The notes under the pieces were generated by a model. It was not told the origin of the DNA and made no database searches. It worked only from the letters and a program-made list of their open reading frames with translations. 34,585 nucleotides of DNA from a virus (taxonomy: Duplodnaviria > Heunggongvirae > Uroviricota > Caudoviricetes): IMG/VR virus record IMGVR_UViG_3300032286_000363, positions 1-34,585 of that record, one strand, 5' to 3'. Positions 1,974-14,749 of this stretch are shown here, piece by piece (the stretch's first letter is position 1; each line of letters starts with the position of its first letter). The position numbers and the translations under genes were made by a program.

Positions 1974-2972
1974 CTATAATGTATTTCTAAAATCAGTTGT
2001 AAGATCTGTCCAAGTTCCTGAGTTTCTCAACCATAATTCATTAAAGTTTATAGATGGTGCATATCCATCATCTACATTAATAAATGTTCCAGATAGGAAA
2101 TAAAGATCTTTTTGTCCTGTAAGAACAGGAATCAATGTATTCTTTAAATCTGTAAAACTTGCCACTCTTATATATTCTGTAGCTAATTTAACACCAGCAC
2201 TGTATTTAGTGGGGTCTAAAACAAAGTTATAAGGAGCAGAACAAAGTGTAGCTCTATTTGTATATAGAATACTAGCAAGTGTATAGTATTGATCATTATC
2301 AGCAAATACACCAGCACCTCTAGTTGGAGCAGAACCACCAGAACCATTTGTCATAACCCAGTTAGCAGCTGTAACAACAGCACCACAGGTATTATCACTT
2401 GTAGCAGAAGTCTTTCCTCTTCTTAACATTCTACCTACATTATCATTAGCAGTAACAAGATCAGCTTGTTGTGTAACTCCTATGTGAGGCATGTTAATTA
2501 ACAATAATGGTCCATCAGTAGGAGTCATTGTTGTAGCATGACTTTGCCAAGCTTGTAATGCTAGAGCTCCTGTATGAGGATAACCAGCTAATCCACCACC
2601 CATAAATGGTCCAAGATAGGAATTTAATGCTGGAGGATTTTGTCCTATGTTATTAATATCAGCAAACTCAGAAGCATTAACATCATCTGAACACACTGTA
2701 AGATTTAAAACTGTATCACTGGTTTTCACACCTCTATCAGAAAGGAATAATTGTAATCTTGTAGCAAGATGTTGAGCTAATACAGCATCTGGATAGGTTG
2801 TTTGTACAACATCAAGATAGTGCTGAGTAGTCTTATTAAAATATTCTATAGGTTGAACCTCTTTCCATATACCCACCTTAGGAGCATGAGTGTATAAACC
2901 AAGACTTCCTGGTACTATTTCTCCATTTCTTAGAAACCTTGCATAAGGTTTTAACTTTATACTTTTTGTCAT
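1974..2972 (-). CDS. LCIB/LCIC-family (theta-class) carbonic anhydrase with an N-terminal phage module
   Basis: Collinear LCIB-family motifs: YPDA...; C94-S-D96; PFMGGGLAGYP.TG..A...H; PH163IG; VGRMLRRG; TC196GA; C-terminal SGTFIN. The Cys/His/Cys Zn triad is at 2691-2693, 2484-2486 and 2385-2387. Confidence 0.85.
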   Translation of the reverse strand: MTKSIKLKPYARFLRNGEIVPGSLGLYTHAPKVGIWKEVQPIEYFNKTTQHYLDVVQTTYPDAVLAQHLATRLQLFLSDRGVKTSDTVLNLTVCSDDVNASEFADINNIGQNPPALNSYLGPFMGGGLAGYPHTGALALQAWQSHATTMTPTDGPLLLINMPHIGVTQQADLVTANDNVGRMLRRGKTSATSDNTCGAVVTAANWVMTNGSGGSAPTRGAGVFADNDQYYTLASILYTNRATLCSAPYNFVLDPTKYSAGVKLATEYIRVASFTDLKNTLIPVLTGQKDLYFLSGTFINVDDGYAPSINFNELWLRNSGTWTDLTTDFRNTL

Positions 2973-3130
2973 TATTTTCCTTTTCTAGCTTTGGCCATTT
3001 TCTTAAGAGTGTGAGCTAATGCTTTCCTTTTCGGTGTACAAGTGGGCTTACTTTCAGGTGTGCAAAAACCCTTATGTTTAGGATTGATTGCCTTCTGTAT
3101 CCACTTTTTATCCTTCTTAGCTGTAGCCAT
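2972..3130 (-). CDS. Small basic protein (52 aa; not in ORF track)
   Basis: Hand translation MATAKKDKKWIQKAINPKHKGFCTPESKPTCTPKRKALAHTLKKMAKARKGK*. Its stop overlaps the carbonic anhydrase ATG (TAATG). Confidence 0.85.
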   Translation of the reverse strand: MATAKKDKKWIQKAINPKHKGFCTPESKPTCTPKRKALAHTLKKMAKARKGK

Positions 3131-3132
3131 AA

Positions 3133-3486
3133 CTATTTCTTTTTAGACATTTTACCACCCATTTTTTTCTGAGGAAGACCTGGACTAGTTCCATAAGCTT
3201 TTTTAGAAAACTTAGTTTCTTTTTCTCTAGCTTCAGCAGCTTTTTTTCTAAGGCCACTTGCTTTACTAGTTCCCATTGCATTCACTGCCTTTGCACTATA
3301 ATCATCAAACTGCTTACCGTAGATTGCAACACTATCCTTATAATTAGGAGACTTTGTGCTTTCACTAGTAGTTGTACCAAGTTTAGCCTTTGTTACCTTC
3401 CCACCTGCTTTCATCATTGGAGCAGCTTTCTTAGCTGATTTTTTAACCATAGACTTTTTAGCCATGGGTTTTTTCATCATTGCCAT
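3133..3486 (-). CDS. Lys/Met/Ala-rich basic protein (histone-H1-like composition)
   Basis: 117 aa. MAMMKKPMAKKSMVKKSAKKAAPMMKAGGKV at the N-terminus and KKMGGKMSKKK at the C-terminus. Confidence 0.75.
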   Translation of the reverse strand: MAMMKKPMAKKSMVKKSAKKAAPMMKAGGKVTKAKLGTTTSESTKSPNYKDSVAIYGKQFDDYSAKAVNAMGTSKASGLRKKAAEAREKETKFSKKAYGTSPGLPQKKMGGKMSKKK

Positions 3487-3492
3487 TGTAAA

Positions 3493-3639
3493 TTATTTAG
3501 ATTTTGATTTAATCTTTTTCTCCTGTTGAAGCATTTGTTTAGTGGGCTTCTTACCACTTCCTTTATTCGCACGGAGGTTGTCCCACAACCCTCGTTGTGA
3601 GACAGAACCATCCTTACGTTTAATCATTTGCTTAGGCAT
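3493..3639 (-). CDS. Small basic protein (48 aa; not in ORF track)
   Basis: Hand translation MPKQMIKRKDGSVSQRGLWDNLRANKGSGKKPTKQMLQQEKKIKSKSK*. The GLWDN.RA...PT pattern is recalled from phage basic peptides. Confidence 0.8.
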   Translation of the reverse strand: MPKQMIKRKDGSVSQRGLWDNLRANKGSGKKPTKQMLQQEKKIKSKSK

Positions 3640-3803
3640 TAGCTAACTTTCTTTACATCTTGAGCAGAAAATCCTAAGAAGAACAATCCTACAGCTTGTA
3701 TGATTTGTCCAACAAGGTTTAACACTCCTATTTGAGTGTTTACTAAAAATGTTCCAGCAGCAGCTAAAAGGCCACCGATTGTTGTTTTCCAACTTTGATT
3801 CAT
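3639..3803 (-). CDS. Small two-TM membrane protein, holin-like (54 aa; not in ORF track)
   Basis: Hand translation MNQSWKTTIGGLLAAAGTFLVNTQIGVLNLVGQIIQAVGLFFLGFSAQDVKKVS*. SWKTT.G start, two hydrophobic helices and a charged tail. TAATG-coupled to the next gene. Confidence 0.75.
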   Translation of the reverse strand: MNQSWKTTIGGLLAAAGTFLVNTQIGVLNLVGQIIQAVGLFFLGFSAQDVKKVS

Positions 3804-3832
3804 AACTTGAAGTTTAATTGTTACAGAATAAA

Positions 3833-4069
3833 TTATTCACTAACTTCTTCAGGAGCTTCTTTAACAACACCATTTTCAACAGCCTTAGCTAATGTAGCTT
3901 CAACAATTGTGTTAGCTTGGTTTGCTAATAAGATTTTACTTGCTTCAGGTGTGCTAAGAATAGCTCTTAAAGTGTTTAAAATTACACCAAATTCTCCTCC
4001 AGATAGAGTGAAAGAATCTTCAGGTGTCCATGAGTACTTTTTGTTTGGATCGTAGGTGATCTTTTCCAT
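3833..4069 (-). CDS. Hypothetical protein
   Basis: 78-aa ORF downstream of a predicted promoter, with the A-rich initiation region AAACCAAAATAAATCAAC-ATG. Confidence 0.7.
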   Translation of the reverse strand: MEKITYDPNKKYSWTPEDSFTLSGGEFGVILNTLRAILSTPEASKILLANQANTIVEATLAKAVENGVVKEAPEEVSE

Positions 4070-4093
4070 GTTGATTTATTTTGGTTTAAAAAA

Positions 4094-4125
4094 CGAAGAT
4101 ATGTATTTGATTTGTAATTTCCAAA
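4094..4125 (-). promoter_or_regulatory. Bacteroidota sigma70-type promoter
   Basis: TTTG-N20-TATCTTCG, one mismatch to TAnnTTTG, in the intergenic gap 4070-4126. Confidence 0.65.
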
Positions 4126-4126
4126 T

Positions 4127-4411
4127 TTAATTTAGCTCTATGTCAAAAGTTATTGTTGCAGAAGTTTTAATACTCTTGCTCATATTTAATTTGATTTGGA
4201 ACATGTTGTGAAACTTTAACAACTCCTCTAATAGAAGATTGTTATATTTAGGAACAGATGTTGCTATTCTAAAATGATATGATTCTGGACCTCTGGTTAT
4301 TTCCATTGAACAAAGCTCATCTATGGAATCAATAAGTCCTTCTAAATGTGAGAAGTATGCAAGCTCATTGTCTGGCATAATCTCAGGAAAAAACTTCTTA
4401 TTTATTTGCAT
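4127..4411 (-). CDS. Hypothetical protein
   Basis: 94-aa ORF, TAATG-coupled to the upstream Dps-like gene. Confidence 0.7.
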   Translation of the reverse strand: MQINKKFFPEIMPDNELAYFSHLEGLIDSIDELCSMEITRGPESYHFRIATSVPKYNNLLLEELLKFHNMFQIKLNMSKSIKTSATITFDIELN

Positions 4412-4833
4412 TAAGACAGGGTTAACAAATACAATGTTTTAGCTGCTTCTCCAGATAGAGATTGTGCAATGTTTTCAATGTCACACATGTTATTAGCTTC
4501 TCCATACTCTTCCAACTCTTTAGCAAACATCTTAAGATCGTTCACCACAGATTTTGTTATTCCTATAGAGTAGTCTCTTAACATTTCGTGCTTCATTGCT
4601 TTAGGACGAGTTCCAGAATAGCCCATTATTTTTTCTACAATCTCATCCTTCAAGTCAAACACCTTATCATATAGTCCACCAAGAGCTTGGTGTTCTGCAT
4701 AACTAGTTGTTTGCCAATGTAATAGATGTAATTGGTCTACAAAATGTGTAAGCTTAGCAGCTATGCTGTCTAAGTTTAGAGAGCTTCCTCCCACACCTTC
4801 CATCATTCCTTCTGGGAATATTGATAATGCCAT
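4411..4833 (-). CDS. Dps-like ferritin-fold protein (DUF5856-like)
   Basis: LHLLHWQTTSYAEHQALGGLYDKVFDLKDEIVEKIMG reproduces the Dps H-W...H...D...E ferroxidase-centre spacing. Predicted all-helical, 140 aa. Confidence 0.75.
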   Translation of the reverse strand: MALSIFPEGMMEGVGGSSLNLDSIAAKLTHFVDQLHLLHWQTTSYAEHQALGGLYDKVFDLKDEIVEKIMGYSGTRPKAMKHEMLRDYSIGITKSVVNDLKMFAKELEEYGEANNMCDIENIAQSLSGEAAKTLYLLTLS

Positions 4834-4843
4834 AAAGTTTGGT

Positions 4844-5581
4844 TTATATAGATACAGTCATCGTTAATGCTTGTTGTCCAGAGCAAATAGCTTGCTTCTG
4901 AAGATCTGTCATCACTAAAGTTAAATTTGTACCACCTGTTGTAGAGAAAACTCCAAGAACAGGATATGTAGTATTTAATCTAGTAACAAGGTCTGCAACA
5001 GTAGTAGACGATTGTGAAGAAGCAAGAGTTAAAACTAATGAATTAGATTGTTTAATTGAAACTATTACAGTACCATTGAACGCTGTAAGAGGTGTGATTA
5101 CTAAGTTTCCTACTCCTGTAGCTAATACATTAAGGGTTGTAGTTGCAGCTATTGCTGATGTAGTTACACCACCAAATGCTACACTAATACTTCCAGCAGA
5201 TGCACCAGTGATTGTAATACTAATTGTATATCGTTTACCTACTACAGCAGCTAATGAATTAGATAAAGCAGCTGTTCCTGTTGCATGAGCATATCCTGCA
5301 GCAAATGAACCAGACCATCCTGTACCAGCAGTCCAACCAGTGCTAGAAAGTAATTCACTTCCTATAGAACCACCACAATACATTCTCACTTTAAAGTTAG
5401 TGATTGCTGTAGCTACAGTTGTAGTTAATGTGTGATCTGTACAACATTCATATCCTTGTACTTCTGTCCATTTACCAACTTTAGGTTTTTGTCTTCTCAA
5501 GATCAATGATCCTGCAACAACTCTTCCGCTACCATCATAGCGAACAAAGGCTCTTAAGTCTTTCTTATTGTTTCCATTCAT
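4844..5581 (-). CDS. Putative virion structural/decoration protein with a beta-sandwich (CBM-like) domain
   Basis: N-terminal module shared with the carbonic anhydrase. The Thr/Gly/Ala-rich central region GWTAGTGWS...VVGKRYTISITI...GSISV...LVITP..FNGTV.VSIK has a galactose-binding/CBM-like strand pattern. Confidence 0.6.
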   Translation of the reverse strand: MNGNNKKDLRAFVRYDGSGRVVAGSLILRRQKPKVGKWTEVQGYECCTDHTLTTTVATAITNFKVRMYCGGSIGSELLSSTGWTAGTGWSGSFAAGYAHATGTAALSNSLAAVVGKRYTISITITGASAGSISVAFGGVTTSAIAATTTLNVLATGVGNLVITPLTAFNGTVIVSIKQSNSLVLTLASSQSSTTVADLVTRLNTTYPVLGVFSTTGGTNLTLVMTDLQKQAICSGQQALTMTVSI

Positions 5582-5593
5582 AACTAATTGTTT

Positions 5594-6622
5594 TTAGGGG
5601 TTATAGGTTAAATTATATTTATTTTTTAATTCAATAAGTTGTATAACATAATGATGTGTACAATACTTTGCACTTTCTTCACTATTTAAAACAATGTTTA
5701 AATGAGAATCGTTAAAAGGATTTTTACCAGTGTGATATTTTCCTTTATAGAAAGCTGGATAACCTTTCATATAGTCTCCCACTATTCCTGCATTATGTAA
5801 AATTGTACATCTACTTAATTTCTCAATAGGATCTGAGCTCCAAGCAAATTCCATTTCTGGAACATTCTTTGTTTCTAAGTCTCTCTTCCAAAGGTTCCAA
5901 AGAACAGCCCACATATCAGCGCACCAACTTTGAAATCCTGTATCCTCATCCTTAAAAAACTCCTTATTTACATTTTGTAAATACACTCTTAAATAAAGAC
6001 AATGATTTTTAACATCTTCCCAAAAAGAAGCATCTATATTCTTAAGGAAGTATTGTGCACCTCCTGAATGTAGATTGTTCTTTTCACATGTTGCTCTATC
6101 TATTCCTACAAGACTAGTTGCATTACCAAGGATGTCATGTTTTTTATATTCCTCTAGTTTATTTGGAAGAACATCCTTAATCTTACTATCAAAATATGAA
6201 GCGTTTACATAACTATTTGTATCAGATAGATAGCAAACATCGTCATCTATAAACTTAGAAACATCAAACTTCTCTGTAAAAACAATGTCTGAATCACAAT
6301 AGAACACAGCATTATTTTTCATATCTGGATTGTCTTTAAAATATCTTTGAAGACAATAAGGTCTAAGAACAGGTATGTAAACACCAATTTTATCACTTAT
6401 ATCATTCTCTTCATCTTTGTAGAAAACAAATTCTGCTTCTGGATAGAGGTTTACAACCTTTTCCCATCTTGCAGATGCTTTGTCTCTAAAGGAAGGAGTG
6501 AACACAAGAACAATAGCCTTGTCTGACATTCCTATTTTCCTAAGACTCTCAATCCATAAATGCACTTGCCAAACATAATAATTATCATCAGGCTGGCATA
6601 CTACGAACTTTAGTTCCTTCAT
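5594..6622 (-). CDS. GT-A glycosyltransferase, resembling the peptidyl-serine galactosyltransferase / Hyp O-arabinosyltransferase family
   Basis: N-terminal C..D.YY.WQ..L..ES motif, a DxD-type FYCDSDIVF motif, WCADMWA.LW, and a C-terminal ILHNAG. Confidence 0.65.
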   Translation of the reverse strand: MKELKFVVCQPDDNYYVWQVHLWIESLRKIGMSDKAIVLVFTPSFRDKASARWEKVVNLYPEAEFVFYKDEENDISDKIGVYIPVLRPYCLQRYFKDNPDMKNNAVFYCDSDIVFTEKFDVSKFIDDDVCYLSDTNSYVNASYFDSKIKDVLPNKLEEYKKHDILGNATSLVGIDRATCEKNNLHSGGAQYFLKNIDASFWEDVKNHCLYLRVYLQNVNKEFFKDEDTGFQSWCADMWAVLWNLWKRDLETKNVPEMEFAWSSDPIEKLSRCTILHNAGIVGDYMKGYPAFYKGKYHTGKNPFNDSHLNIVLNSEESAKYCTHHYVIQLIELKNKYNLTYNP

Positions 6623-6638
6623 ATATGTAGTTTTGGTT

Positions 6639-7907
6639 TTAATCTGTTATGACTGTCCAATTTCTAGTTATCAATATACCTTTATCAATCAACCCTTGAC
6701 CTGTTGGAGGTGCTAGTGGTATTTGACTATTGATCAATAACCTACCTCTATTGTTTCCATTAGCCACTAACTGATTTAAAAGTTTATTCACTTGTGTAGA
6801 TGATAGTTTGTTTCCATAAAGTATTACAGTATTAAGATTCAATCTACTATAATCAACTTCTAATATTTGAAAATTACCATGATCACTAGTGCTATCAACA
6901 TATCCTATAACTGTTGGATCTTTCATATAAACTTTTACATCAAAGATATCATTAGAAGTAAATGTATGACTAATAATTTGAGGATGATTTGAAATATAAT
7001 ATTGTAAATTACTACCATCTCCCCAATCAATAAACATTTCAGTGTTTAATTGTACTATTCCATCATATTGTGCACCATCTGGACTACCAGCATTCCCTGC
7101 ACTATTATCTACTTTAAATGTAAACCCTAAAACGTATGAAAAATCTATAGATCCCTGTACACCTATAAATGGGTTAATTGGATCATAAACTCCTGTAACA
7201 TTTGTTATTGTATATCCACTTGCTGATTGATCTGTTATTTGAGCAGACAATGTATTTCCTTTGAATATTAATAATTTAGTCTTAGCTAATACTGTTAAAG
7301 GTGCTGTTGGTGGAGTGAAATTTAAACTAGGGATGCTATATAAATGCTCACTTGTCCATCTAAAATTAGTAATCTTGCCTTTAATTGCATTACCATTTCC
7401 TCTAGATCCTAAATATAATGGTAGACCATTTGTTGGAATAGTACCAGAGTAAAATCCATTTGCTATCGCTATACCATTTTGAAAAATCCCTATTTCATTT
7501 CTACGTCTAGTTACAGTGAAATAAGACCATGTTCCTATGTAGTTTTGTGGTAATGTAGCTGATAAAACTATACTTCCACCAATCCAATAATTCATTACTC
7601 CACCTTCTATACTAACAGCATGTGCTCCAGCAGAACCCACACTCCAAGCTCTAGGATTATTATTGTTAGAATCTATATTAGCCCACCATTCTATTGTATA
7701 ATCACTATCTGCAACAATCCCTTCTTGATATTCAGGAATGTCAAAGTTTGGACTGTTATCAATCATTAATGTAACGTTAGGAATGATAGGAACAAGAGGA
7801 CCTAAAACAACTTTAGATGTTACACTAATCAATCTTTCAAGTTGTTGAGAGATTTGATAGTATAAATTAGCCTCAGGGCCCCATCCTATTTGTTTTGATA
7901 TTCCCAT
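6639..7907 (-). CDS. Virion-associated protein with LamG/concanavalin-like, PKD-like and LRR-like domains
   Basis: DYTIEWW...WSYFTVTR....IFQNG...LYLG...G.ITNFR (LamG); FIDWGDGS...SHTF (PKD-like); L..V.LYGNKL...VNKLL..L (LRR-like cap). Confidence 0.7.
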   Translation of the reverse strand: MGISKQIGWGPEANLYYQISQQLERLISVTSKVVLGPLVPIIPNVTLMIDNSPNFDIPEYQEGIVADSDYTIEWWANIDSNNNNPRAWSVGSAGAHAVSIEGGVMNYWIGGSIVLSATLPQNYIGTWSYFTVTRRRNEIGIFQNGIAIANGFYSGTIPTNGLPLYLGSRGNGNAIKGKITNFRWTSEHLYSIPSLNFTPPTAPLTVLAKTKLLIFKGNTLSAQITDQSASGYTITNVTGVYDPINPFIGVQGSIDFSYVLGFTFKVDNSAGNAGSPDGAQYDGIVQLNTEMFIDWGDGSNLQYYISNHPQIISHTFTSNDIFDVKVYMKDPTVIGYVDSTSDHGNFQILEVDYSRLNLNTVILYGNKLSSTQVNKLLNQLVANGNNRGRLLINSQIPLAPPTGQGLIDKGILITRNWTVITD

Positions 7908-8035
7908 TATGGTATTGTAGTGGTGGTTGTTGTTAATGCTGCTGTCACCTTGATCAATCTATCTAATTGCATAGATATTTGATAAAGAAGATTTGCTTCA
8001 ACACTTTGTCCTATTTGTCTATTTGGTACTCCCAT
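7907..8035 (-). CDS. 42-aa peptide paralogous to the N-terminus of the downstream LamG protein (not in ORF track)
   Basis: Hand translation MGVPNRQIGQSVEANLLYQISMQLDRLIKVTAALTTTTTTIP*. 18/25 identity to LamG-protein residues QIG...ISVT. TAATG overlap with that gene. Confidence 0.85.
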   Translation of the reverse strand: MGVPNRQIGQSVEANLLYQISMQLDRLIKVTAALTTTTTTIP

Positions 8036-8053
8036 TTTATTAATTTTATTTTA

Positions 8054-8083
8054 CAAAAGTAAACACTTTATTATAATTAACAA
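8054..8083 (-). promoter_or_regulatory. Bacteroidota sigma70-type promoter
   Basis: TTG-N19-TACTTTTG in the intergenic region 8036-8115, 19 nt upstream of the ATG at 8035. Confidence 0.65.
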
Positions 8084-8115
8084 TGTAATTGAAAAAATTA
8101 CAATAATGTAATTAG

Positions 8116-8532
8116 TTAAATCTTTGCCAACTGGAAGTGCATACCATCAGGTTTAGACCATGTACCACCCCAATAAAAACCATTGTCTGTAAAACATTTT
8201 ACAAATCCTGCAGACAATACTGGTTTACAACCAAAACAGTTCCAAGCTGCATTGAGATCTACAGCTATTCCCCAGCTATGTAAAGACATACTAGCTTGTC
8301 CTCTTTTCTTTCTAATATTAAAACAACCATCCCATGTCTTAAGTTCTTTAACATGATCTGTTGTTATAAGAGCTTGGAAAGCTGCAGCTAAAGGAACAAT
8401 AAGATCTTTGTTACAATATATCTTCTTAGGAATAACACCTATCTCTAAATATCCTGGAACATCCCACATAATCATAGCTGATTGATTGTTGGGATCTCCG
8501 TATTTCTTTAGTGCTTGTGCTGATGTAACCAT
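8116..8532 (-). CDS. Endolysin, M15-family peptidase (L-Ala-D-Glu peptidase type)
   Basis: FNIRKKRG...SLHSWGIAVDLN...WGGTWSKPDGMHFQL gives the SxHxxxxAxD and HxQ zinc motifs. Confidence 0.9.
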   Translation of the reverse strand: MVTSAQALKKYGDPNNQSAMIMWDVPGYLEIGVIPKKIYCNKDLIVPLAAAFQALITTDHVKELKTWDGCFNIRKKRGQASMSLHSWGIAVDLNAAWNCFGCKPVLSAGFVKCFTDNGFYWGGTWSKPDGMHFQLAKI

Positions 8533-9170
8533 TATTTATTCTTTTTTAACAATGTATAATAGGAAACTCCGTATGTCAATCTTCCACCTTCCCAGAAAAC
8601 ATTTCCTCCATACATCCTATTGTGAAGATCTTTATATAAGATTCCTCCGCTTACACCAAAAGATGTTGGAGATAGGAGTCTTAATGAAGGACCAATGTAA
8701 AACTCTCTTTTGTTCACTACAACATTATTATTTACAAATGCTGTCTTTTCAGGAATCTTTATATTCTTTACAAACTCTCTTCCTGTAAGTGTGTTCTTTT
8801 GAACAGTGTCTATAATTTTCACCCAACCAAGACTGTCTAAATAAATTGAATCCTTATATATATTCCTGGATAGAAGTTCTTGTTTAAGGCTTTGAAACTG
8901 TTCTAACAGTTCAGAATATCCTTCTTGAGGATAGTATTCTACAGAACTTTCAAGTAGTGTATCTCTTATCCTCTGTATAAGTATAGGGAACGTTCTAGTT
9001 GTATCTTTATAATATACATAATGTACATATGTAATTGTATCTGATTTAACACCTCCACCACCAGCATTCTGACGTTTACATGTTTCATATAATATCATTA
9101 TCAACAATACTATTATAAGAATGTATATTATATTATTTTTATTACGCACGTTTGATATTGTAATAAACAT
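8532..9170 (-). CDS. Membrane-anchored envelope protein, spanin-like
   Basis: Lies between the holin-like gene and the endolysin. N-terminal hydrophobic segment followed by a Cys (YETC), a central helix, and C-terminal alternating aromatic beta-strands. Confidence 0.5.
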   Translation of the reverse strand: MFITISNVRNKNNIIYILIIVLLIMILYETCKRQNAGGGGVKSDTITYVHYVYYKDTTRTFPILIQRIRDTLLESSVEYYPQEGYSELLEQFQSLKQELLSRNIYKDSIYLDSLGWVKIIDTVQKNTLTGREFVKNIKIPEKTAFVNNNVVVNKREFYIGPSLRLLSPTSFGVSGGILYKDLHNRMYGGNVFWEGGRLTYGVSYYTLLKKNK

Positions 9171-9459
9171 TTACAAAATATTGTAATATTAAAGCTACCC
9201 CTACCACTATGCCAATAGTCCAATAAACTCTATTCTTGAAGTTTTCATATTGCAATTGACTCTTCTCTAAAATCTCAATCTTTTGTTTCATAATCTCAAT
9301 ATCCTGCATGAGTCCTCCAATTTTTGTAAGAGGGTTGCCAAGGATAGCATCTACCACTTGTGTAAGCTTTGTATCAATTACATCAATTTTACTCTCCATA
9401 TCGGTTAGTCTGTCCTCCATTTGTTCAAGTTGGGATGTGAAGTTTGTATTCGTTTCCAT
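9142..9459 (-). CDS. Holin-like protein (coiled coil plus C-terminal TM; XhlA-like architecture)
   Basis: Heptad-rich N-terminus and a single TM segment VYWTIGIVVGVALILQYFV. First gene of the lysis cassette. Confidence 0.55.
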   Translation of the reverse strand: METNTNFTSQLEQMEDRLTDMESKIDVIDTKLTQVVDAILGNPLTKIGGLMQDIEIMKQKIEILEKSQLQYENFKNRVYWTIGIVVGVALILQYFVNVYYNIKRA

Positions 9460-9469
9460 AGAAAAGTTT

Positions 9470-9507
9470 AAAAAAAAATATTCCCATGCTCAAGAGAGAG
9501 GGAATAT
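9470..9507 (-). terminator. Intrinsic terminator-like hairpin directly upstream of the holin-like gene
   Basis: Minus strand ATATTCCC-TCTCTCTTGAGCAT-GGGAATAT, an 8-bp perfect inverted repeat (9478-9485 / 9500-9507), running into a 9-T tract (9470-9478). Confidence 0.65.
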
Positions 9508-9521
9508 GTAGTTTAGGTTTA

Positions 9522-9553
9522 CAAAAATATATGATTGTATTGAGATTACCAAA
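9522..9553 (-). promoter_or_regulatory. Bacteroidota sigma70-type promoter for the lysis cassette
   Basis: Perfect TTTG-N20-TATTTTTG in the intergenic gap 9460-9559. Confidence 0.75.
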
Positions 9554-9559
9554 TTTATT

Positions 9560-9892
9560 TTACTCATCTTCTTCTATAGCCTTGAGAGAGTGGTTTCTAT
9601 CTAGGAGCTCCAAAACACAATCTAAAACAATACCTAATTTAGTTAATGTATTTACCAATTTGTTTTTCCCAATAACACTACTAATGGTTTCATCCTCATT
9701 TCCAAACTTATAAATACTGTAATGTTTTATTAAAGTTGAATTGAATAATCTAGCACATATAACATTTCCTAATTGGTCTATTGCTCTAGCTATATTATAA
9801 AAATACTTTCTTCTTCCTGGATAGAACATTGCAAATACAAATCCTATTGGGAAAAGAATAATTGATATTATCGTAGCAACTATAAGAATCAT
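9560..9892 (-). CDS. Conserved hypothetical phage membrane protein
   Basis: N-terminal TM segment and the IDQLGN...GNEDETISS..GK motif pattern recalled from phage proteins. Confidence 0.7.
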   Translation of the reverse strand: MILIVATIISIILFPIGFVFAMFYPGRRKYFYNIARAIDQLGNVICARLFNSTLIKHYSIYKFGNEDETISSVIGKNKLVNTLTKLGIVLDCVLELLDRNHSLKAIEEDE

Positions 9893-10323
9893 AACAAGTC
9901 TATAAAAGTTTTTCCCTGTGTTATTGCATTATCTCTAGCAGCTGTATTCAATTCTTTAGCATATGTTATACCTCTAGCTATTAGTTGCCAATATGCATTA
10001 TCAGGTATATTACCTTCTTCATCTGGACCTATACCATCTGTAATTTCTTGTATTACACCTGCTGTTATCTGTGGAGTAAGAAGATCATCCATTTCAACAT
10101 TTAGTCTATTAGCTTGACCTTCAGGTAACACTGTTAGTGTTTTGAACATATCAACAACTTCCACTACACTAGCATTTACATCAAAAGAAGCATCTAAATC
10201 ATTATTCCCATTTAATGCTGTTTTCAATCTATTGATTAATGAAAAATATTGTTGAACTGAACTATTTCTTAGATAGTGAACTATGTAATAATAATGTTTT
10301 GCTTTTAATCTAATTTGTACCAT
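9889..10323 (-). CDS. Hypothetical protein (possibly tail-associated)
   Basis: 144-aa ORF right after the tail fibre gene, with an ATGA overlap to the next gene. Confidence 0.7.
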   Translation of the reverse strand: MVQIRLKAKHYYYIVHYLRNSSVQQYFSLINRLKTALNGNNDLDASFDVNASVVEVVDMFKTLTVLPEGQANRLNVEMDDLLTPQITAGVIQEITDGIGPDEEGNIPDNAYWQLIARGITYAKELNTAARDNAITQGKTFIDLL

Positions 10324-10336
10324 GTTTTATATTTTA

Positions 10337-13300
10337 TTATTCAATGTAAATTGTTCCTCCAAATACATTATTTCCTGGAGTTACTGTATTAACAGATACT
10401 ACCTTTATTTCAAAATAATCTCCTTCTGTAACATTTATTGATAATGCATTGTTATTATAAGTCCTAAAAAGGGCTGATGCTGTTGATGTTGCAACTAATG
10501 TATCAGTTGTATTATTCAGTCTTATACTAACAGTAATTGAAGTTATTGTACCTGTTGTAGCTGAATAGTGTCCAATGTAAGCTTTTGTTATTGTGCCTGT
10601 TTTTGGAATATACACTCTTGACACATCAGGAACAATAACTGGTGATCTACCAACATTTCCAAAATAATAAGTTGTTCCATTATTTAAATTACCTACTGAT
10701 GCTACTAATGCTAATGTATATCCTTTACTATCTAATTGCGTTTGTACAGCACTTGTAGCACCCTTTACATAACTTAACTCAGTTAATGATGGATATGTAG
10801 CTGTACTAAGACTTGCTATTGTACTTCCTGTTGAATTAAAATAAGCTATCTGATTATTTGTACCTGTTCCTGTTACAGGGTTAGTTAATGTAGCTTGCTT
10901 CCCATTTAGTTGTGATTGTATACCACTTGTAACACCTGAAACATATCCAAGTTCTGTATCAGTGGTAGCACTTACAGCCACCTTACCACTTACATTACTA
11001 ATTAATGCTCTTGATGCTGTAAGATCAGCTGATGTTATTGTTGTAGCAGCTCCTGTTATAGTGGCTTGTTTTGTTCCTATTTGAGTTTGTATAGAGGATG
11101 TAACTCCTTTTACATATGCCAATTCACCTGGTGATGGATATGTTGCAGTGGGTAATCCTGTAACACTTTGGTCTGCATTTACACATAATATTAATTGACT
11201 ACCACTACTATTAGGTATTTTTATATTTGATGTAAATGTTTTTTGTCCTGCGATAGTTTGTGCTCCTGTTGTAATTAAACCCCTTGCACTTGCACCAGCA
11301 TCAGGAAGATTAAACGTATGTGTTGTTCCTGAGGAAACAATAGTAAAGTCTGTACCACTTGTTCCTGTTACCAATGTTTGTGCTGCTCCTGTAAGACTAT
11401 TAATAGCAGTGATACCTGTACCAGCCATTATTCCACTTTGTTGTGTTACTGTTAAAATTGCAGATGGTATTGCTGGATGTGGAGCTGCAGCAGCTGAAGC
11501 TACTATTTCAACATTTGTATTACTTGTTGACCACATTAATTGCACATAATCATTTTGTACTAAATCTAAAACATAGTTCCAAGCTGCTACAACTGGAGAA
11601 GCGTTTGCACTTCCTGTTAATACAACCTTTCCTGTAGTTGATGGAATATCAACACCATTTTTTCTAATCCAAATGTCTGCAATCATATTTCCACTACCAC
11701 CTGTTTTCTCAAGTTGTAATGAAAACTGTATATTGTAAATTCCAGTATTTGCTAATGTTACTCTTGTTGGATTGCTACTACCATCATTAACTACACTAAC
11801 ACCATTTGTTAAATCTGTTGTATTTAATTTTACAGCATAAGCAGTATTAATAGATGCAGCAGTTTGTGTTGTAGTATCTTGAAATGCACCATAATATCCT
11901 GTAGCTGTAGGAGTGGCTGTACTATTAAGTGTGCCACCTGTAAGAGTGAGGCCTGAACCAACAGTAATTTCTTCCATAACACCTGTTCCTGCAGAACTTC
12001 TACCAATCAATTTATTGGTAGCCATTGATGTAGATATGGTTGGTGTATTTCCACCACTAGATGTAATAGGACTAGTTGCTCCTACTGATGTTACAGCAGA
12101 TGTTAAATAAGTGTTTGTATCTAAAGCAAATGTACCAGCAGCTGTCATCTTTACAAAAGATGTAGAAGCATACGTTAGTCCTGATAAAGATGTAAGATTT
12201 GTAGCAAGAGGTTGTCCTCCTAATCCACTCAATGTATATGTAGGAACGTTCAACACTCCTGAAATTAATGTACTTGCTCCACTATTTCCTGTAACAGTTA
12301 GAGATGAAAATGTAGCTGTTGGAGGTGTTGGTATATTTAGAACATTAGCAACCAATGTTGCTGCTCCTGAACCAGTGGTTGTAAGAGATGTAATTCTATT
12401 AGTGTAAGCAGAATCCCAATTTGTATTATTGTAACTAGCTGTTGTAGGTATTAAGTATCCTGATGTAAGACTAAATACACCTGTAGTATTTGTATATGTA
12501 AGTCCTGTAGCTGTTGAGCTAAGAGATGTAAGAGTTATACCACCAAGTCCTGCAAGTGTATATGTAGGAACATTTAGTACACCACTTATTAAAGTTGAAG
12601 CTCCTGATGAGCCTGTAGTGGTGAGAGATGTGAATGCTGCAGTTCCAGGAGTAGGTATATTTAATACATTTGCTATGAATGTAGCAGCTCCTGATCCTGT
12701 AGTAGTTAGTGTTATTGGATTTTGTTTACCGTTAAACGTAGTCCAATTTGCAGAAGATAGATAACCATCTTGAGATCCACTAGCTTGCTGAATAGTTATA
12801 TTAGGAGTGGTTCCTCCTGTAGAGGATAATGGAGAGCTTGCTGTTACAGCTGATACACCACTTGTTCCAGTAGCAGCAATTGTGAAATTAGGATAGGTTC
12901 CTGTAACCGATATACCTGTTCCATTATTTAACACAACTGTTTGATCAGGAGCTGTGTTAGTTATTGTTATGTTTGGTGTTGTTGTAGGATTTGATACAGA
13001 TGCTGATATCCCTGTTCCTGGTGTAACAGAAACACTTGTTACTGTTCCAATTCCTCCACTACCTATAGCCACTTGACTAATTGATGTAATAAGTCCCTTA
13101 CTATTCACATTTATAATAGGAATAGCTGTAGCACTTCCATAAACTCCAGGTGTAGAAAGCACATTTGCTAACGTTAAACTAATTGGAGATCCTGTGTTTC
13201 CATACCCATAAACATCTCCATTAATAACAACGCTACTTGAAGGAACAGCAATCACTGTTGTTGTTACCCCTGTAATAAGTCCTTTAGCATTCACTGTTAT

Positions 13301-13798
13301 AATAGGAACTCTTGTAGCACTTCCGTATGTAGCAGGAGCATTGAAAACTGTAGATAATGTAAACACAGAACTTCCTGGTCCACTAGCTGTTCCATCTCCT
13401 GTTAATTCTGTAATATATGCACCTGGACGTTGTGCACCTCCATCATCTAAAGAACCATCACCTTTAACAAACTGGAAAGATGTTCCTCCTGTTGTTATAA
13501 ATGCACTAGCTTGAACTGTTCCAGATAGACCAAATGTAAACCCTTGACTGTTGATTGCGGTATCATTAACTAACACACCACCAAGTTTTACTGGTTGTCC
13601 AGGAGCAGTTTGTATCACACCATTTGTAAACACATATCCAAGTCCTGCATCTCTAAACTTATTATCAATCTTTTCTAATACAAGTTGAAGATTATCATTG
13701 GTGTTCACTCCTGTATATACAAGATTAGCTCCTGAGTAAAATACACAAGTGCTATCTAATATTATAGGACATGCAGGTGCTGAACAAATATTATTCAT
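10337..13798 (-). CDS. Long tail fibre-like protein
   Basis: 1153 aa, extremely T/G/S-rich, with several internal repeat families, a Cys-containing N-terminal module and a C-terminal beta-sandwich. Confidence 0.8.
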   Translation of the reverse strand: MNNICSAPACPIILDSTCVFYSGANLVYTGVNTNDNLQLVLEKIDNKFRDAGLGYVFTNGVIQTAPGQPVKLGGVLVNDTAINSQGFTFGLSGTVQASAFITTGGTSFQFVKGDGSLDDGGAQRPGAYITELTGDGTASGPGSSVFTLSTVFNAPATYGSATRVPIITVNAKGLITGVTTTVIAVPSSSVVINGDVYGYGNTGSPISLTLANVLSTPGVYGSATAIPIINVNSKGLITSISQVAIGSGGIGTVTSVSVTPGTGISASVSNPTTTPNITITNTAPDQTVVLNNGTGISVTGTYPNFTIAATGTSGVSAVTASSPLSSTGGTTPNITIQQASGSQDGYLSSANWTTFNGKQNPITLTTTGSGAATFIANVLNIPTPGTAAFTSLTTTGSSGASTLISGVLNVPTYTLAGLGGITLTSLSSTATGLTYTNTTGVFSLTSGYLIPTTASYNNTNWDSAYTNRITSLTTTGSGAATLVANVLNIPTPPTATFSSLTVTGNSGASTLISGVLNVPTYTLSGLGGQPLATNLTSLSGLTYASTSFVKMTAAGTFALDTNTYLTSAVTSVGATSPITSSGGNTPTISTSMATNKLIGRSSAGTGVMEEITVGSGLTLTGGTLNSTATPTATGYYGAFQDTTTQTAASINTAYAVKLNTTDLTNGVSVVNDGSSNPTRVTLANTGIYNIQFSLQLEKTGGSGNMIADIWIRKNGVDIPSTTGKVVLTGSANASPVVAAWNYVLDLVQNDYVQLMWSTSNTNVEIVASAAAAPHPAIPSAILTVTQQSGIMAGTGITAINSLTGAAQTLVTGTSGTDFTIVSSGTTHTFNLPDAGASARGLITTGAQTIAGQKTFTSNIKIPNSSGSQLILCVNADQSVTGLPTATYPSPGELAYVKGVTSSIQTQIGTKQATITGAATTITSADLTASRALISNVSGKVAVSATTDTELGYVSGVTSGIQSQLNGKQATLTNPVTGTGTNNQIAYFNSTGSTIASLSTATYPSLTELSYVKGATSAVQTQLDSKGYTLALVASVGNLNNGTTYYFGNVGRSPVIVPDVSRVYIPKTGTITKAYIGHYSATTGTITSITVSIRLNNTTDTLVATSTASALFRTYNNNALSINVTEGDYFEIKVVSVNTVTPGNNVFGGTIYIE
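12217..12720 (-). repeat. Internal duplication of an about 58-aa unit in the tail fibre gene
   Basis: LTTTGSGAATFIANVLNIPTP...SLTTTGSSGASTLISGVLNVPTYTLAGLGG (about 12541-12715) versus LTTTGSGAATLVANVLNIPTP...SLTVTGNSGASTLISGVLNVPTYTLSGLGG (about 12217-12390). Synonymous sites have diverged. Confidence 0.9.
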
Positions 13799-13807
13799 AT
13801 TGTATTA

Positions 13808-14749
13808 TTATGGATAAACTCTAATTTCAATTAATTGATTTGCAAATGGAAGTGCGCCAGTAGCTCCATCAGATAATCTTTTTGAAAATATACGAACTAT
13901 AGCATCTGTGTTTCTTAAACCTATCAAACAGTAACTATCTAATCCTGACCCTGGAAAATATATTCCACTTGTAGGTACTGCTGTTTTATTATTTGTAAAT
14001 GGACCAGCAGTCATTGTTGCTGTAAAAAATACGCCTGTGTAAGCCCATGCAATATCATTTATACCATCTGCAGAACCATTACCTATTGTATTCTGTAAAA
14101 CTATAGTTGTTGTAGAAGTGCCATCGTAGCTAAGAAATGCTGTATAAACCTTATATTTTTCTAACGCTAATGTACCAGTTGTAGAAGGAAAATCAATAGT
14201 TTGATCATTATTGTTGAAGTTTATCACCATTTGATCAGTATTAATTATACTATCTATCACAATACCTGTAGACTGATATGTTGTACTTGTATCAGCAATC
14301 GCACTCTCTAAGGTAATTATTCCTGAATCAATAATAGATGATTCTGTAGGAGTGGTTAATGTATTCCCAATAGTAAGTGGTGTTGTGGAAACATCTCCAG
14401 CAATTAAAACCTGATCAAGCGTTGGTGCATTATTAGCAACATATGTTGCAACAGCACTTTGTGTAGGGAATAATGTAGCTGAAGGAACTCCTGTATTAAA
14501 TGTACCATCAGTAGATTTATTAGAAGAGCTTTCTTTTAAAGCAACATTACCATTGATTGTTATAACACTTGAATTGAGTGTGGTTATACTAGTGTTCACC
14601 GCACCAACTGAACTGTTGATGTTAGTTAATATTTTATCTAAAGCATCTAATGGAGATGCGTTGATGTTTGATAAATAGGTTCCGTTATATATAACACATA
14701 AAGAATTTATATATGTTGTACAGGTTGGGCAAATTTGGGATGTTCTCAT
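13808..14749 (-). CDS. Tail fibre/spike-like protein
   Basis: N-terminal Cys module homologous to that of the 1153-aa fibre, then a short coiled coil, a TL..VL..G motif and a C-terminal KVYTA.L...LQNTIG domain. Confidence 0.7.
   Translation of the reverse strand: MRTSQICPTCTTYINSLCVIYNGTYLSNINASPLDALDKILTNINSSVGAVNTSITTLNSSVITINGNVALKESSSNKSTDGTFNTGVPSATLFPTQSAVATYVANNAPTLDQVLIAGDVSTTPLTIGNTLTTPTESSIIDSGIITLESAIADTSTTYQSTGIVIDSIINTDQMVINFNNNDQTIDFPSTTGTLALEKYKVYTAFLSYDGTSTTTIVLQNTIGNGSADGINDIAWAYTGVFFTATMTAGPFTNNKTAVPTSGIYFPGSGLDSYCLIGLRNTDAIVRIFSKRLSDGATGALPFANQLIEIRVYP

Follow-up and report, generated by a model that had tools for sequence, protein, structure and literature searches.

Three tags, each in two genes of the window

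The stretch of DNA analyzed here (34,585 nucleotides; hereafter, the window) comprises the initial 34.6 kb of IMGVR_UViG_3300032286_000363, a viral record of 113,975 bp that has terminal repeats. Between positions 1974 and 14749 it carries three pairs of genes whose products share a short N-terminal module (hereafter, tag) within each pair and differ in the cargo that follows the tag. All genes of interest lie on the minus strand, as do all long open reading frames (ORFs), and the G+C content is about 33%. An initial annotation had described three unrelated modules, each found exactly twice in this region, and had interpreted them as docking tags that load enzymes and glycan-binding domains onto the virus particle. 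Pairwise BLASTP restricted to the N-termini of each protein pair bore out the three modules. Tag A is shared by a 245-aa protein (4844..5581, tag roughly 5440-5569) and a 332-aa protein (1974..2972, tag roughly 2835-2957) that carries a divergent variant of it in front of a predicted LCIB-type carbonic anhydrase (20 of 47 residues identical, 43%; E 4e-8). Tag B links a 42-aa ORF (7907..8035), which consists of the amphipathic helix tag and a six-threonine tail with an IP end, to a 422-aa protein with LamG-type cargo (6639..7907, tag roughly 7806-7907; 20 of 34 identical, 59%; E 1e-10). Tag C heads a short fiber of 313 aa (13808..14749, tag roughly 14570-14749) and a long fiber of 1153 aa (10337..13798, tag roughly 13619-13798; 14 of 42 identical, 33%; E 0.008). 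A 342-aa gene assigned to phrog_4417 and predicted to encode a GT-A fold glycosyltransferase (5594..6622) lies between the tag B and tag A genes.

A profile of each pair was searched against all 799 ORFs of the genome. The strong matches (E 1e-30 to 1e-36) were to window ORFs alone, and no further copy of tag A or tag B was found in the whole genome (next best E >0.2). The count of exactly two thus holds genome-wide for tags A and B but not for tag C, for which an iterated profile placed two more N-terminal copies elsewhere in the genome (57677..56232, E 2e-7; 58781..57696, E 1e-3). These are adjacent minus-strand genes of 481 and 361 aa (56232-58781) that both start with the tag, and the 361-aa product matches tail and tail-fiber PHROGs (E 9e-19). 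The four tag C proteins of the genome therefore form two clusters about 45 kb apart. Among the cargo labels first proposed, LamG was supported in the 422-aa protein (Pfam E 1.6e-9), whereas neither PKD nor a leucine-rich repeat (LRR) domain was confirmed there by Pfam. The 245-aa protein, described as similar to a carbohydrate-binding module (CBM), has a beta-sandwich cargo in its structural model, but Foldseek returned only weak CBM-type matches (E ≥0.037) and the CBM-like label is unproven at a best E of 0.037. The 42-aa protein, described as having no cargo, ends in the six-threonine tail.

The tags are 35-60 aa long. Tag A comprises about 41 aa, usually with E-C-C at its end, and is modeled in the 245-aa protein as three short beta strands (residues 10-41; predicted local distance difference test score, pLDDT, ~85-89) followed by a low-confidence linker. 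Tandem double copies of tag A occur in single proteins of relatives (L053:9267-9971, L041:8540-9403, and L058:11515-12063), and the scores of >130 bits of its top database matches suggest two or three copies each. Tag B is an amphipathic helix of about 35-40 aa. Tag C is Cys-rich, about 55 aa long, and has three conserved cysteines and a V-x-Y-x-G core (motif C..C.......C.V.Y.G..L). No Pfam family covers any of the three. The ratio of nonsynonymous to synonymous polymorphism (pN/pS) of stub genes was 0.43 (the 42-aa tag B stub) and 0.29, with pS saturated, so these genes are constrained as proteins. Counting only sequences that extend beyond the tag, a profile search of 5.8 billion proteins recovered at least 1,647 proteins for tag A and at least 1,902 for tag B. 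The tag C profile matched 1,294 representative clusters, 319 of them at E ≤1e-10; in the 150 best of the 1,294, the match nearly always covered residues 1-59 of proteins of 60-2057 aa. Ten database tag C proteins that were searched against Pfam and PHROGs gave almost no matches. We conclude that the tags are real, independent protein-level modules.

Tags persist while cargo is replaced

To compare the region among relatives, 80 related viral loci were collected with the glycosyltransferase gene 6622..5594 as the anchor (63-92% identity), and 75 others through tag A alone, giving 155 related loci in total. Iterated profiles found tag A in 145 ORFs, which come from 81/81 sources and encode 50-1292 aa, and tag B likewise in 145, which come from 78/81 sources and encode 32-996 aa; nearly all matches were at the N-terminus. 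The order of the genes is conserved, with tag B genes followed by the glycosyltransferase gene and then by one to three tag A genes. The glycosyltransferase gene was found about 1 kb upstream of tag A in 73 of the 75 tag A-found loci, the other two ending at contig edges, and tag B was present in 66 of the 75.

The cargo shows the opposite pattern, falling into 60 similarity clusters under tag A and 66 under tag B. Compared to the related loci L002 and L003, tags and flanks share 87-97% DNA identity, whereas no cargo similarity was detectable. The tag B cargo (6650-7790) shows no DNA similarity with either L002 or L003, with the tag and flanks 93-95% identical, and the tag A cargo (4826-5439) has none to L003, with the flanks 87-93% identical. 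The distal parts of both tag C fibers also differ in the nearest relatives: the N-terminal two thirds of the 313-aa fiber share 96% DNA identity with L002 while its C-terminal tip has no similarity, and the long fiber, which is 1465 aa long in L002, has its first ~240 residues in common (97.6% DNA identity) and a different distal part. The tag C variation rests on a few loci (a seed from the C-terminus of the neighboring 1947-aa protein returned three) and on the representative-cluster search. The 42-aa tag B stub is retained as an ORF in relatives, with a poly-threonine tail of variable length. Thus, across the 155 loci, tags and gene order persist and cargo varies, which is the outcome that the initial annotation had proposed to look for. 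This demonstrates a modular organization of tag and swappable cargo, with swaps that are clean at the tag boundary: in near-identical relatives, whose flanks share 89-95% DNA identity, all similarity ends exactly where the tag meets the cargo.

Cargo also moves between tag families A and B, as judged from sequence similarity between cargos of the two. The best such pair shares 53% identity over 194 aa (E 6e-59), and a second one 65% over 83 aa (E 5e-31). Four Pfam domains are listed under both tags (PF13306 LRR_5, PF03382 DUF285, PF07603 Lcl_C, and PF13385 LamG_3). The tag A list further includes PF09603 Fib_succ_major, PF18911 PKD_4, and PF13884 (the fiber-typical S74 chaperone domain), and the tag B list PF13855 LRR_8; Fib_succ_major was found under tag B as well in related loci.

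The cargo that most often follows tags A and B is a poly-threonine tail, consisting of runs of about 7-9 threonines with short A/V/P/E spacers, and many of the longer tag A and tag B proteins use such runs as a linker before small Cys-rich domains. Poly-threonine runs are present in 68% of the proteins with tag A and 49% of those with tag B, compared with 0/11 tag C proteins in the loci and 4/150 in the database (among the matches listed). Six or more consecutive G-X-Y triplets, as in collagen, were found in 28/184 proteins with tag B and 13/150 with tag C (again among the matches listed), but in 0/214 with tag A. Of 47 tag B cargos, Pfam assigns Collagen to 9 and C1q to one. Cysteine is enriched in tag A cargo, at 2.5 Cys per 100 aa versus 1.5 in the background. 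Because collagen-type runs occur under tags B and C and never under tag A, we infer that tags B and C head obligate trimers and that tag A apparently does not.

A conserved N-terminus in front of variable cargo is also the design of the T4 internal protein loci, in which a targeting signal of ~10 aa and a prohead-protease cleavage site precede hypervariable cargo. By that analogy, the tags could be packaging signals comparable to T4 capsid-targeting sequences, and the cargo would be loaded inside the head for ejection into the host; an enzyme would be easier to explain within the cell. Crassviruses do carry internal cargo proteins (PMC10172136). We regard this as very unlikely, given that the cargo consists mostly of adhesin and fiber domains (collagen, C1q, LamG, LRR, and Lcl_C), poly-threonine linkers, and Cys-rich mini-domains, which are types of exposed proteins, and that inspection by eye found no conserved cleavage motif after the tags.

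The carbonic anhydrase is a fixed fusion

The carbonic anhydrase label of the 332-aa protein was upheld. Residues 65-228 match PF18599 (LCIB_C_CA) well above its cut-off (63.7 versus 25 bits; E 1.9e-17), and C94-x-D96, H163, and C196 align with identical residues in the solved LCIB structures 6kfs and 5b5y; we take these Cys-x-Asp, His, and Cys residues to be the zinc ligands of LCIB. The cargo is therefore predicted to be an LCIB-type (theta-type) carbonic anhydrase. The PF18599 match and the Cys-x-Asp, His, and Cys motifs are common to this protein and the LCIB/LCIC enzymes (PDB 6kfs and 5b5y). In contrast to these, it is phage-encoded, begins with the tag A variant, and belongs to about 10% of the related phages (10 of 104 related loci that have enough downstream sequence).

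Wherever the enzyme occurs, it follows the same divergent tag A variant, which has no C-C end (13/13 carbonic anhydrase ORFs in the loci and 22/22 database matches). The gene, present in those 10 of 104 loci, is thus an accessory gene, and it encodes an old fixed fusion and not an actively exchanged cargo. Recruitment by fusion to a tag, as first proposed, thus stands as an old event, without active swapping, and the fixed pairing of tag and cargo that had been named as refuting the proposal holds for this single protein.

A glycosyltransferase and its probable acceptors

Two features of the locus were missed in the initial annotation: the glycosyltransferase gene between tags B and A, and the poly-threonine 'blank' cargo. 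The product of gene 6622..5594 matches phrog_4417 (E 4.5e-55) and has no match in Pfam or NCBIfam. Its AlphaFold2 model (pLDDT 92) resembles GT8 glycogenin, the UGGT catalytic domain, and GT6 enzymes in Foldseek (probability 1.0, E ~2e-6), and the DxD motif (D110, D112) is invariant. From the modeled fold, we identify it as a putative GT-A fold glycosyltransferase. A search of the ESM Atlas pointed to Glyco_transf_7C and HPAT-type peptide glycosyltransferases, which we treat as a lead only.

The family is present in 77 GenBank phages, mostly of Firmicutes. In phiFL1A, iLp84, 1706, phiCTP1, and RQ1, the homologue comes immediately after a gene for a major tail protein. Runs of 5-9 threonines form the end of the annotated major tail protein in all five of these phages and of a major head or capsid protein in four of them (not RQ1). 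Thr-run proteins adjoin the homologue in Chryseobacterium phage MA9V-3 as well. Because the family travels with poly-threonine tails on surface proteins of other phages, the poly-threonine tails at our locus are likely to be the acceptor of the glycosyltransferase. Thr-rich tails are present on proteins encoded beside the glycosyltransferase here, and because the family accompanies Thr-tailed head and tail proteins in the Firmicutes phages, the tagged stubs may be surface proteins of the virion too.

A Thr/Ser-rich tail was also observed outside the window, in a 389-aa protein encoded at 59814-60983 on the minus strand (L166:9815-10984), with a ΦcrAss001 gp34-like gene on one side and the second pair of tag C fibers on the other. 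The tail closes with six threonines and then KIP, a T6-(K)IP ending that it shares with the 42-aa tag B stub. The protein had no match in the Atlas or PDB and is a possible capsid-associated glycosylation target.

The association with the glycosyltransferase can be read in another way, in which tags A and B are leader-like recognition handles that bring the adjacent poly-threonine to the neighboring enzyme and have no part in docking. Tag genes do flank the glycosyltransferase in 73/75 of the tag A-found loci, poly-threonine runs are present in the majority of tag A and in half of tag B proteins, and the stubs are hardly more than a tag with an acceptor. The five Firmicutes phages, in contrast, place poly-threonine directly on head and tail proteins in the presence of the same enzyme family and have no such tags. 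Many tagged proteins, including the carbonic anhydrase, LamG, and 245-aa proteins of the window, have no poly-threonine run, and collagen, C1q, and LRR cargo suggests fibers in need of an anchor. On this evidence, recognition handles seem quite unlikely. A related reading, that the tags are leaders of ribosomally synthesized and post-translationally modified peptides, was rejected because the cargos are large folded domains.

Genomic setting

Along the minus strand, the genes are ordered as a 4441-aa giant protein, a 1947-aa giant protein, the two fibers, a lysis block that includes an M15 endolysin (8532..8116), the tag A and tag B genes, and small basic proteins. The sole match of the 1947-aa protein is to the uncultured phage cr108_1, and a portal homologue at 69445..66848 matches ΦcrAss001 gp20 (E 6e-34); because of these two matches, the source is assigned to an uncultured, distantly crAss-like freshwater phage. 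Its capsid hexamer and tail-hub proteins would be encoded at about 59 to 67 kb. No match was found when the tag A and tag B consensus sequences were compared by tblastn with 50,697 GenBank phage records, nor when the region was compared with GenBank phages by megablast. Among 185,579 prokaryote genomes, tag A was found in only four contigs of metagenome-assembled genomes (MAGs), and the tags are therefore not a bacterial protein family. One of the tag A contigs (JBBAJS010000010.1, L086; 111,986 bp) lies in a Sediminibacterium (Chitinophagaceae) MAG bin; it is phage-sized and probably phage, and its binning is either a possible host hint or an artefact. Candidate hosts are therefore Chitinophagaceae, such as Sediminibacterium, and other Bacteroidota of fresh water.

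A 140-aa DUF5856/starvation-inducible (Dps-like) protein is encoded between both tag A genes (4411-4833, minus strand; Pfam E 1.5e-14, phrog_858). Very lysine-rich small proteins of 48-117 aa are encoded at 359-752 and 2972-3639 (minus strand); two of them begin with M-A-T-x-K-K, and they may be DNA-binding or internal proteins. Promoter and terminator scans gave signals at or below chance.

The position of the tag A and tag B genes after the endolysin, together with the resemblance of tag B to designed coiled coils, would also fit oligomerization or folding modules of non-structural proteins, such as soluble adhesins or enzymes released at burst. The gene order alone is no argument against a structural role, because the head fiber gene gp29 of ΦcrAss001 (L171, 15040-15408) itself lies in the lysis cassette, between the holin-like gp28 and the endolysin gp30. 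A protein that begins with tag C matches tail-fiber PHROGs, and the poly-threonine tails that accompany the glycosyltransferase family in Firmicutes phages sit on head and tail proteins of the virion, both of which speak against non-structural products. We consider this explanation unlikely.

Tags as candidate docking plugs

The explanation that we find best supported, with a probability of roughly 0.6, is that the tags are short plugs that dock accessory proteins at different sites of the virion. It is favored because of an analogy with the plugs of ΦcrAss001, the fiber and adhesin types of cargo, and the link between poly-threonine and the glycosyltransferase; virion attachment, the docking sites, the oligomeric states, and glycosylation are all inferred. 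Modularity and swapping, as parts of the initial interpretation, are supported by direct comparison, and docking is argued by analogy.

ΦcrAss001 has three kinds of fibers that are attached by short N-terminal segments (PMC10172136): residues 1-38 of the trimeric head fiber gp21 bind a pocket of planar hexons, residues 1-58 of the dimeric head fiber gp29 bind a pocket of winged hexons, and residues 1-26 of the tail fiber gp22 enter the disulfide-stabilized tail hub. This likewise crass-type phage (Bayfield et al. 2023) therefore resembles ours in having three fiber kinds, short N-terminal segments, and three different sockets, and its trimeric fiber class has a counterpart in tag B, which has collagen, as its non-trimeric class has in tag A, which has none. 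The differences are that ΦcrAss001 has one cargo per plug, compared with dozens to thousands per tag family here, and that the present tags, unlike its plugs, have blank poly-threonine versions and a linked glycosyltransferase. The parallel is one of design and not of family.

In this mechanism, the three modules would be address tags that fix accessory proteins to three particle sites. Tag C, which heads four proteins of the tail-fiber type, probably plugs into the tail-fiber hub. Tag B, which is often continued directly by collagen triplets, probably serves to nucleate trimeric fibers and to anchor them, and tag A, which never precedes collagen, probably anchors non-trimeric decorations. The part of the gene downstream of the tag is a cassette, in which recombination at the tag boundary replaces one cargo by another. 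The cargo types include LamG, BspA-type LRR, DUF285, Lcl_C, Fib_succ_major, C1q, and small Cys-rich domains, with the carbonic anhydrase as a fixed member. The poly-threonine tail would be the probable acceptor of the glycosyltransferase encoded between the tag loci, and the blank stubs would thereby give rise to a glycan coat.

Several observations weigh against docking. The tag A and tag B genes come after the lysis cassette and are not part of the fiber cluster. The tag profiles have no detectable homology to ΦcrAss001 gp21, gp22, or gp29 (best E 0.019, off the N-terminus), and no similarity to any natural PDB chain was detectable for the tags, the tag A profile having no match among PDB sequences and the tag B profile matching designed helical/coiled-coil proteins only. 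The carbonic anhydrase cargo is not swapped, and an enzyme of this kind would have no obvious role when displayed on the surface. Phage glycosyltransferases also modify DNA or host glycans. All 155 loci apparently belong to one phage lineage, so that the adjacency of the glycosyltransferase could be inherited synteny, and no cultured close relative was found in the GenBank phage set.

Discussion

A conserved N-terminal module with a replaced C-terminal part, as found here, is the architecture of modular fibers and receptor-binding proteins (RBPs). In Klebsiella and other phages, the RBPs couple an N-terminal anchor to a C-terminal specificity domain that can be swapped (Latka et al. 2019, PMC6872550; 2021, PMC8262889). 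In both systems, the N-terminal structural module is conserved, the C-terminal module is exchanged horizontally, and the recombination breakpoints fall at the boundary between them. The RBP anchors are larger, sit on tail spikes, and carry depolymerases, whereas the present tags comprise 35-60 aa. Two of the three tag families lie outside the fiber cluster, unlike modular RBPs, and their cargo consists of lectin-like domains, an enzyme unrelated to adsorption, and bare poly-threonine tails.

For the glycosyltransferase, the closest comparison is with mycobacteriophages, which likewise encode a glycosyltransferase beside virion proteins with Ser/Thr-rich C-terminal tails. There, the tails are on capsid and tail-tube subunits; here, they are on small dedicated tag proteins. 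The O-glycosylation of mycobacteriophage virions has been read as a glycan shield, according to Freeman et al. 2023 as cited in PMC11256854.

The principle of an N-terminal anchor with exchangeable cargo is thus already known from modular RBPs (PMC6872550, PMC8262889) and ΦcrAss001. New are three unnamed tag families, each with >1,000 members or representative clusters in public data, the blank poly-threonine versions of the tags beside a glycosyltransferase, the movement of cargo between tags, the predicted enzyme cargo, and the presence of collagen repeats under tags B and C but never under tag A. A more specific model would have a display system with three sockets, two of them kinds of capsid hexon pocket and the third the tail hub, in which glycosylated blanks and cargo-loaded versions compete, single cassette swaps re-dress the capsid with lectins, adhesins, or even the carbonic anhydrase, and cargo moves between sockets. 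We put this forward tentatively, as a possible but doubtful elaboration.

If the tags are virion plugs, many uncultured freshwater crAss-like phages would have three short, portable address peptides, already validated by nature, and these would directly reveal which of their uncharacterized proteins sit on the particle. The tags would then constitute a natural display scaffold and would help explain how the surface is diversified, in host adhesion and in its glycan coat, while the core structural genes remain untouched. We know of no precedent for a capsid-borne carbonic anhydrase. To our knowledge, virion glycosylation has so far been shown in mycobacteriophages only, and the poly-threonine stubs together with the glycosyltransferase would extend it to phages of Bacteroidota.

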